From: a virus | Taxonomy: Duplodnaviria > Heunggongvirae > Uroviricota > Caudoviricetes | DNA length: 15,732 nucleotides | Direction: 5' to 3' (one strand) | Virus record (IMG/VR): IMGVR_UViG_2740892234_000001 | Span: 1 to 15,732 of that record | Shown here: positions 1,476 through 1,970 of the stretch, one piece after another | Layout of the letters: each line of letters begins with the position of its first letter | Position numbering within the stretch: position 1 is the stretch's first letter | Program-made: the position numbers and the translations under genes | The notes under the pieces: model-generated | Told to the model about the DNA's origin: nothing | Seen by the model: only the letters and a program-made list of their open reading frames with translations | Database searches by the model: none

Positions 1476-1970
1476 ATGTCTGATGAAAAAGGAATAATAA
1501 GTAGGATTACAGATGCAGTTTCTGGTGCCGGAGGTGCTCTGATGAGTGCTGTTGGCGCAGTAAAGGAAATCCAGAAAATGCAAATAGACTACTCAGTAAA
1601 AGAAAAAACATACGAACTTGTCGATAAGCTCATGGATGCCCAACAGCAGCAAATGTCACTTAATGAGCTTTTGATGATTTCTAAGGACAAGATTATTGAG
1701 CTTGAAGAAAAGATAAATCGAGCCTCTAAGTGGGAAGAGGAAAAGAAAAACTATGAGATGTATACACCTACTGTTGCTACGGTGGTTTATCGTCTCAAAA
1801 AATCGGCAAATACCGGTCAGCCAATGCACTATCTTTGCGCTCAATGCTATGAATCTTCTGTGAAATCCATACTTCAATACGAAGGATTTGCACCACCTTC
1901 TAACCATAGGATGAGATGCCATAGGTGTAACGCCTCCTATCTGTTCCCTAAATCTGCATTTTCTAAATAA
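1476..1970 (+). CDS. Hypothetical protein (164 aa): Gly/Ala-rich N-terminal segment, coiled coil, C-terminal CxxC...CxxC zinc ribbon; sits in the sieB slot on the opposite strand
   Basis: ORF 1467..1970; preferred start ATG 1476 with AAGAGAG Shine-Dalgarno 8 nt upstream; C-terminus has C-x2-C-x22-C-x2-C (YLCAQCYES...MRCHRCNAS); does not match lambda SieB. Confidence 0.6.

Follow-up and report, generated by a model that had tools for sequence, protein, structure and literature searches.

We describe here a gene in a window of 15,732 nucleotides, by which we mean the whole stretch of DNA that was analysed (IMG/VR record IMGVR_UViG_2740892234_000001, Caudoviricetes). The gene, referred to as rip1 on the evidence given below, occupies the interval between ral and N, and its surroundings comprise the following features.

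1066-1266, minus strand: ral, on the left flank of the slot.
1250-1336, minus strand: orf28, a 28-codon open reading frame (ORF), also on the left flank.
1461-1467, plus strand: Shine-Dalgarno-like AAGAGAG of rip1, 8 nt 5' of the ATG, identified by inspection of the sequence.
1476-1970, plus strand: rip1 coding sequence, 164 amino acids, with ATG at 1476 and TAA at 1968-1970, from the ORF listing and translation.
2286 to 1963, minus strand: N of the lambda type, 107 amino acids, with its stop codon at 1963-1965, convergent with rip1.
2397-2411: boxB of nutL, to the right of rip1 and N.
2496-2468: promoter pL (TTGACA-17-GATACT), to the right of rip1 and N.

A preliminary description of this DNA had placed a plus-strand ORF at 1476-1970 in the slot between ral and N, within a lambda gene order that was otherwise conserved (ral and the 28-codon ORF on the left, N and nutL on the right), and both the ORF listing with its translation and the coordinates bear this out. 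The overlap with the N stop codon to which it drew attention is real but minor, amounting to 8 bp (1963-1970) with the stop codons counted, and the pL transcript is antisense to the entire rip1 gene. An alternative start codon, GTG, is present at position 1467. Because the N-termini of all homologues and of the Protein Data Bank (PDB) sequence discussed below read MSDEKG or MSxxKG, the start of rip1 is the ATG at 1476.

Based on a profile search of PDB sequences, the rip1 product corresponds to entry 9oox, 'ring interacting pore 1 (Rip1)' (E=6e-82). A single-sequence search with phmmer returned the same entry at E=1.4e-105 with one mismatch in 164 residues, namely Y96 in the window protein and H96 in the deposited one. 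The title of 9oox is 'Cryo-EM structure of the Escherichia phage HK446 Rip1 in complex with the Enterobacteria phage T6 small terminase'. HK446 Rip1 carries H96, as the PDB sequence does, and the window protein is identical to it at 163 of 164 positions (99.4%). The preliminary description had suggested a structure prediction, and the AlphaFold2 (AF2) model of the window protein led Foldseek to Rip1 in 9oox_M (E=2e-17, TM 0.85 normalised to the target, rmsd 2.7 Å, 126 columns), and the model shows the same fold as the subunit in that structure, which is composed of a long helix and a C-terminal beta-rich domain. Apart from 9oox, the Foldseek search of the PDB with this model gave no fold below E=0.7. 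By tblastn, identical or near-identical genes annotated as hypothetical adjoin N in ev099, vB_EcoP-720R6, and HK446, and relatives at 27-32% identity are present in HK620, HK629, and HK630, as hkaP, and in Mu-like phages of Pseudomonas (D3112 orf25, DMS3-25). The product also matches an unnamed family, PHROG 1244 (phrog_1244; E=4e-53), and scans of the protein against Pfam, NCBIfam, and PADLOC returned no significant match.

The gene is thus very probably rip1, an H96Y allele of the HK446 gene for 'ring interacting pore 1', and a prophage with lambda immunity carries it in the place where lambda and P22 have sieB. With 163 residues out of 164 in common, the window gene can with high confidence be inferred to have the function of HK446 Rip1. 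It is a known gene already, Rip1 having been published together with its structure in February 2026. There is, by contrast, a gap in annotation, in that rip1 is hypothetical or of unknown function in Pfam, NCBIfam, PADLOC 2.0, PHROGs, and RefSeq (WP_001278766.1).

Residues 7-30 of the protein are rich in G, A, and S, moderately hydrophobic, and amphipathic, with a peak hydrophobic moment of 0.42 at residues 7-24, in agreement with the amphipathic N-terminal segment proposed beforehand. The best 19-residue Kyte-Doolittle mean is 1.28, which is under transmembrane level, and the hydropathy scan found no segment of Rip1 hydrophobic enough for a constitutive transmembrane helix. In the AF2 model, the confidence of which is moderate (pLDDT 69, below 50 at the N-terminus), residues 7-34 are helical, a long helix spans residues 39-90 where a helical middle had been anticipated, and the C-terminal domain is rich in beta structure. 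Among 20 homologues, the most distant of them at 44% identity, the cysteines C121, C124, C148, and C151 (CxxC...CxxC) do not vary, and they are kept also in DMS3-25 and HkaP. Of the four-Cys zinc ribbon claimed earlier, the invariant cysteines stand, but the Pfam zinc-ribbon match to Rip1 is not significant (E=0.087), and it is solely from the invariant CxxC pairs that zinc binding may be inferred. As a whole, the earlier sketch of the domains agrees with the N-terminal amphipathic helix and the C-terminal, trigger-binding half of Rip1.

In lambda, sieB (34482-35036) likewise lies on the plus strand and is convergent with N, so that the opposite-strand orientation is a property of the slot rather than of rip1. 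The convergence with the pL operon that had been pointed out is therefore correct, but neither this orientation nor the need for a promoter of its own is peculiar to the gene, both having been inherited from the sieB slot. Comparison by blastn aligned window positions 1025-1460 with lambda 34046-34481 (97%), the last aligned base lying immediately 5' of the lambda sieB ATG, and window positions 1963-2312 with lambda 35037-35386 (97%), starting exactly at the N stop codon. The rip1 cassette, composed of the Shine-Dalgarno sequence and the ORF, extends over 1461-1962, with its left edge at 1461 and its right edge at the N stop codon, and judged by these junctions rip1 is a clean cassette swap for sieB. 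HK446 matches the window over 1375-2312 at 99.4% nucleotide identity; to the left of 1375 the flank of the window follows lambda, not HK446. HK620 matches only 1375-1478 (98%), so that hkaP has the upstream block, the Shine-Dalgarno sequence, and the ATG in common with rip1, but not the ORF. The upstream block contains the following elements.

About 1359-1465, minus strand: antisense RNA block resembling sas, with homology to the P22 sas RNA (its nt 22-127).
1376-1408: stems S1 (1376-1380/1395-1399) and S2 (1387-1392/1403-1408), interleaved and covarying.
1417-1425 and 1451-1459: direct repeat CCCCTACAG, the two copies of which flank the -10 hexamer.
1438-1443, plus strand: TAAAAT, putative -10 hexamer of a slot promoter presumed to correspond to PsieB, based on conservation in 23 blocks.

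The minus strand of the window from 1465 to 1359 is 88% identical to P22A-sas nt 22-127 (97 of 110 aligned positions); the published sequence of this antisense RNA corresponds to P22 nt 11,387-11,513 on the minus strand (PMC13397905). On its plus strand, the same block also carries the putative rip1 promoter region and part of the rip1 5' untranslated region. It is near-invariant from about 1375 to 1431 across lambda, mEp332, P22, HK620, and HK446, and is also present in rip1 loci of Pantoea, Serratia, and Providencia. The conserved sas homology stops at 1465, inside the Shine-Dalgarno sequence and 11 nt before the rip1 ATG, and the window does not conserve the 21 nt at the 5' end of P22 sas that pair with the region of the sieB start. 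A relaxed scan of the minus strand in the 5' codons of rip1, lambda sieB, and hkaP found no Psas-like (sigma-70-like) promoter; in P22 the one site that this relaxed scan yielded is implausible and lies far from the 5' end reported for sas.

Across 23 diverse blocks, positions T1, A2, and T6 of the hexamer are invariant while the inner positions vary (TAAACT, TATAAT, TAATAT, TAGCAT, and others), and for this reason we read TAAAAT at 1438-1443 as a putative -10 element, with a predicted transcription start near 1450. A segment homologous to the hexamer region lies 5' of sieB in both P22 and lambda. The P22 sieB promoter was reportedly mapped in this region, and the lambda promoter inferred by homology, by Ranade and Poteete in J Bacteriol in 1993. 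There is no recognisable -35 element for the TAAAAT hexamer, which explains why a generic sigma-70 scan did not call this putative promoter.

Compensatory changes point to conserved base pairing within the block. Stem S1, GCCTG/CAGGC in the window, is replaced by GCCGG/CCGGC in other loci, and stem S2, AACCAC/GTGGTT in the window, by CGGGA/TCCCG, CCTC/GAGG, or CTACC/GGTAG, with compensatory changes in four of the six pairs of helix 2; S1 and S2 form either a pseudoknot or alternative hairpins. A third stem, scored at 1409-1412/1426-1429, shows compensatory changes as well. Over the block, 6 of 15 pairs were changed on both sides, which was reached by none of 500 shuffles, and 91.6% of the cells in the stems were paired vs 25-47% when the partners were slid. 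In single-sequence folds each copy of CCCCTACAG is located in a hairpin loop, closed by stems 1407-1412/1426-1431 and 1445-1451/1459-1465, respectively, and at the Providencia locus both copies are changed in parallel. The latter, a fourth stem that was read by eye from the fold and the sequences and is unscored, has a 3' arm that enters the Shine-Dalgarno sequence. Single-sequence folding of the block was no better than that of shuffles on either strand (z about -1 and -1.1), the patterns of wobbles and mismatches did not settle which strand is structured, and Rfam gave no match in the conserved block at the gathering threshold or at E<=1.

In viral contigs, a scan for two CCCCTACAG repeats identified 103 loci bearing the block, 102 of which have an ORF behind it. 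These ORFs from 102 phage contigs are SieB-like in 70 cases and Rip1/HkaP-like in 30, and the remaining 2 form a small third family. All-vs-all clustering placed SieB and Rip1/HkaP in separate components. The third family, on IMG/VR contigs L013 and L118, consists of proteins of 80-83 amino acids (for example, MSDIPEMIFPVALTHPMKIFLDPNTGELVFECF...) unrelated to SieB or Rip1. The slot can be regarded as a two-state hotspot, in which unrelated abortive-infection payloads, either SieB or Rip1/HkaP, stand behind one conserved block with a putative promoter on one strand and a sas-type antisense RNA gene on the other. As far as we have checked, this anatomy of the slot, that is, the exchange of SieB and Rip1 cassettes behind a common promoter and sas module, is new.

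Full-length homologues with 44-92% identity occur in Citrobacter, Edwardsiella, Pantoea, Providencia, Serratia, and Proteus, and a profile search at E<=1e-3 found 2,962 representatives of 50%-identity clusters in the Rip1 family. With full-length homologues in six genera and this number of cluster representatives, rip1 is more than a chance ORF. Among complete E. coli genomes, rip1 is present in 97 of 5,426 (approximately 1.8%), always at 99% nucleotide identity or more, and at least 15 E. coli genomes match it at 100%; among the 15 matches listed from complete E. coli genomes, all adjoin N and all are annotated as 'hypothetical protein'. The gene is prophage-encoded, on the strand opposite to the surrounding operon, a placement that would permit its expression in the lysogen, and it lies in the same slot and the same orientation in HK446, ev099, and 720R6. 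In prophages of Pantoea, Serratia, and Providencia the homologues (45-62% identity) are convergent beside N or a repressor, and at the Providencia rip1 locus no N-type gene was called adjacent. In DMS3 the homologue DMS3-25 sits between the terminase genes, which is the published location of Pseudomonas Rip1.

Window positions 1025-5292, the piece from rip1 to cII, are 100% identical to several E. coli chromosomes, and in strain 2013C-3264 this segment is part of a lambda-like prophage adjoining a tRNA-Arg gene. This prophage, in which the 4.3-kb segment is identical, encodes a portal of the lambda family and a small terminase of the Nu1 family, and elsewhere in the E. coli prophage that matches the window there are IS insertions and pseudogenes. 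The 1025-5292 piece, where it occurs in real E. coli genomes, runs on into lambda O, P, and ren.

The window itself contains runs of 10 N at 869-878, 1015-1024, 5293-5302, 10785-10794, and 15400-15409, and appears to have been scaffolded from lambdoid pieces and not to be a single, contiguous phage. It has two immunity regions, one with lambda cI and cII (3798-5224) and a second with cI, cro, and cII (8851-10299), and at 10332-10859 the N-terminus of lambda O is joined over a gap to the C-terminus of cII. On the minus strand, ea10 (DUF2528, 122 amino acids) at 414-782 is followed by a partial ea10-like copy at 795-1001 that is interrupted by an N run; the doubling (414-1001) reflects tandem duplication or else an artefact of scaffolding. 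The minus strand also carries, at 296-354, the cIII thermoregulator element Lambda_thermo of Rfam (88.5 bits, E=7e-21), an expected lambda feature.

Next to the lambda-type repressor, the rexA/rexB slot between N/pL and cI (2714-3801, minus strand) holds two unrelated ORFs instead. One (2714-3316) encodes 200 amino acids with a C-terminal hydrophobic segment and the other (3313-3801) 162 amino acids, or 144 in the shorter RefSeq version; neither has a significant match in Pfam or PADLOC, and both are hypothetical in RefSeq. Based on their position next to cI, these ORFs are candidates for another defence pair expressed in the lysogen. Beside the second repressor, three ORFs lie on the minus strand at 6880-8790, namely a eukaryotic-type Ser/Thr kinase of 348 amino acids (Pfam Pkinase, E=2e-46; PADLOC models mad6 and PD-T4-6), an overlapping ORF of 153 amino acids without matches, and a DUF3024 protein (PADLOC candidate PDC-S43, E=5e-42). 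Taken together, the three suggest a second defence cluster of a prophage, located at the rex equivalent of an immunity region that resembles that of Stx phages. A 797-amino acid DnaB-type replicative helicase is encoded at 12101-14494 on the plus strand, with DnaB_C in two stretches and, between these, a LAGLIDADG homing-endonuclease domain at about residues 393-454; the insert ends ...THN and is followed by T, and the gene looks like that of an intein-containing phage helicase.

Our account of the mechanism draws on secondary summaries of Patel et al. (Nature 651:1060-1067, 2026) and on the PDB title. Passages in these summaries describe Rip1 as a prophage-encoded abortive-infection protein of anti-phage defence (PMC13434031, PMC12908700) that is harmless and non-toxic alone (PMC13434031, PMC12908700, PMC13601566). 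Where they treat the complex, 12 Rip1 subunits surround an 11-mer ring of small terminase via their C-terminal halves, the N-terminal amphipathic helices produce a pore, liposomes and cells are permeabilised, and infected cells bearing Rip1 die ahead of progeny maturation (PMC13434031, PMC12908700, PMC13601566). One review, which describes the N-terminal amphipathic helix, places the escape mutations of Pseudomonas phages in the portal and those of E. coli phages in the small terminase (PMC13434031), and a citing paper refers to Rip1 as a small-terminase sensor (PMC13601566).

On this basis, Rip1 encoded in the window would be produced in the lysogen and be innocuous by itself. Judging from the sequence, it would be transcribed from the conserved sieB-type promoter directly upstream (-10 TAAAAT, 1438-1443), rip1 being a cassette exchanged for sieB behind a common regulatory block. 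When a superinfecting phage enters late gene expression, its portal or, in T-even phages, its ring-shaped small terminase, which is an 11-mer in the solved structure, would serve as the template round which 12 Rip1 subunits assemble through their C-terminal halves. Ring assembly would gather the N-terminal amphipathic helices into a membrane pore, and the pore would breach the inner membrane and kill the cell before progeny mature, an abortive infection in which one protein both senses the invader and kills the cell. The earlier proposal of a lysogen-expressed exclusion or regulatory factor is accordingly upheld as to exclusion by the near-identity to Rip1, but the exclusion is that of an abortive-infection pore, not of an entry block, and the protein is not a regulator. 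A real defence gene had been picked out by a reading of the sequence without tools, and its biology was already published.

In P22, sas switches translation from SieB to the inhibitor Esc, so that P22 is spared by its own SieB. It is conceivable, though we hold the idea only tentatively, that rip1 inherited the sas-type antisense control of the slot besides its promoter. If so, leftward RNA over 1359-1480, either from pL or sas-like, would shut off or re-route Rip1 translation during lytic growth of the prophage, and the phage would be spared its own pore former. More speculatively, and on the precedent of SieB and Esc, the switch could be to an N-terminally truncated Rip1, for example, one starting at Met35, which has AAGGA 10 nt upstream; such a product, if made, would be without the membrane helix and could poison ring assembly. 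SieB and Rip1/HkaP cassettes would then be interchangeable payloads of one conserved promoter-plus-antisense module. The shared module suggests a testable route by which lambdoid phages carrying Rip1 avoid killing themselves.

Other readings of the gene were weighed against its identity as functional Rip1. It shares slot, strand, and upstream block with sieB of lambda and P22, as would be expected of a diverged SieB-type exclusion protein that halts macromolecular synthesis midway through infection in the manner of P22 and lambda SieB. We give this almost no credence, and at the level of homology the sequence comparisons refute it: BLASTP of the product against lambda SieB showed no similarity (E=9.4), in accordance with the earlier statement that the protein is not SieB, lambda homology breaks exactly at the ORF boundaries, and the ORFs behind the block cluster into the two separate components mentioned above. 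Rip1 moreover has no transmembrane-grade segment, whereas one SieB example has an obvious hydrophobic stretch (unscored). It also appears highly unlikely that the gene encodes a zinc-ribbon, nucleic-acid-binding regulator and that convergent transcription or the 3' overlap modulates N expression. A near-identical protein was solved as a ring on a phage small terminase, not on nucleic acid, which outweighs the invariant CxxC...CxxC, the 8-bp overlap with the N stop codon, and the position antisense to the pL operon that speak for such a role. Because homologues occur in non-lambdoid contexts where no N gene is present (DMS3, between terminase genes) or none was called (the Providencia locus), an N-specific role cannot be the function of the family.

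There is, further, little reason to regard the window gene as an inactive or decaying copy, although it is one residue off the characterised protein and the matching E. coli prophage has the IS insertions and pseudogenes mentioned above. That H96Y or residence in a degraded prophage makes the allele non-functional is very unlikely considering that the ORF is intact and that residue 96 among 20 aligned homologues is Y (9), F (4), I (7), or C (1) and never H. The family thus has tyrosine most often at position 96, and the one case of H96 seen was HK446 itself. The exact Y96 allele is also present in the deposited phage genomes ev099 and vB_EcoP-720R6, and the conservation among E. coli genomes, at least 15 of them identical in nucleotide sequence and all 97 at 99% or above, likewise argues against decay. 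Functional Rip1 remains our reading of the gene, and by these comparisons the Y96 allele is probably active.

Among known systems, HK446 Rip1 resembles the window gene in 163 of 164 residues, equal length, position beside N, upstream block, and Shine-Dalgarno sequence, and differs in H96. The carriers are distinct, that of the window being a lambda-immunity prophage with lambda ral and ea10, and HK446 a member of the Hendrixvirinae with another immunity region and erf/abc2 recombination genes. The Rip1-type genes of Pseudomonas Casadabanvirus (DMS3-25, D3112 orf25, and the homologues of JBD30 and MP38) are members of the same family at about 30% identity (E=2e-17 to 4e-18). They share the invariant four Cys and, like rip1 of the window, are opposite-strand morons in an oppositely oriented operon; unlike it, they have no sas-like block (no blastn match).

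HkaP of HK620, HK629, and HK630 occupies the same slot as rip1, behind a 104-nt segment of upstream block, Shine-Dalgarno sequence, and ATG that is 98% identical to 1375-1478. It is of the same protein family (26% identity, four Cys conserved) and clusters with Rip1, but forms a very diverged, paralogue-like branch. Its annotation as 'putative superinfection exclusion protein' rests on position alone; a literature search for 'hkaP' returned unrelated acronyms only and no functional data.

Tab (tail assembly blocker) of Pseudomonas phage JBD26 is likewise an opposite-strand prophage moron with its own promoter, located in the slot that separates the genes for the small and large terminase and that DMS3-25 occupies in related phages, and what it senses is one of the invader's virion-assembly proteins (PMC10884400). 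Different from Rip1, it blocks tail assembly via the tape measure protein without a pore and has a dedicated anti-Tab partner (PMC10884400). Tab and TerI of Listeria had been considered as identities of the window protein and are analogues at most, the match to PDB 9oox having identified Rip1. Finally, the SieB/Esc/sas system of P22 and SieB of lambda share with rip1 the slot, the orientation, and the conserved upstream block, with sas on the opposite strand. SieB is a protein unrelated to Rip1, and P22 sas begins with 21 nt that have no conserved counterpart in the window, but both SieB and Rip1 are prophage-expressed proteins that abort superinfecting phages.
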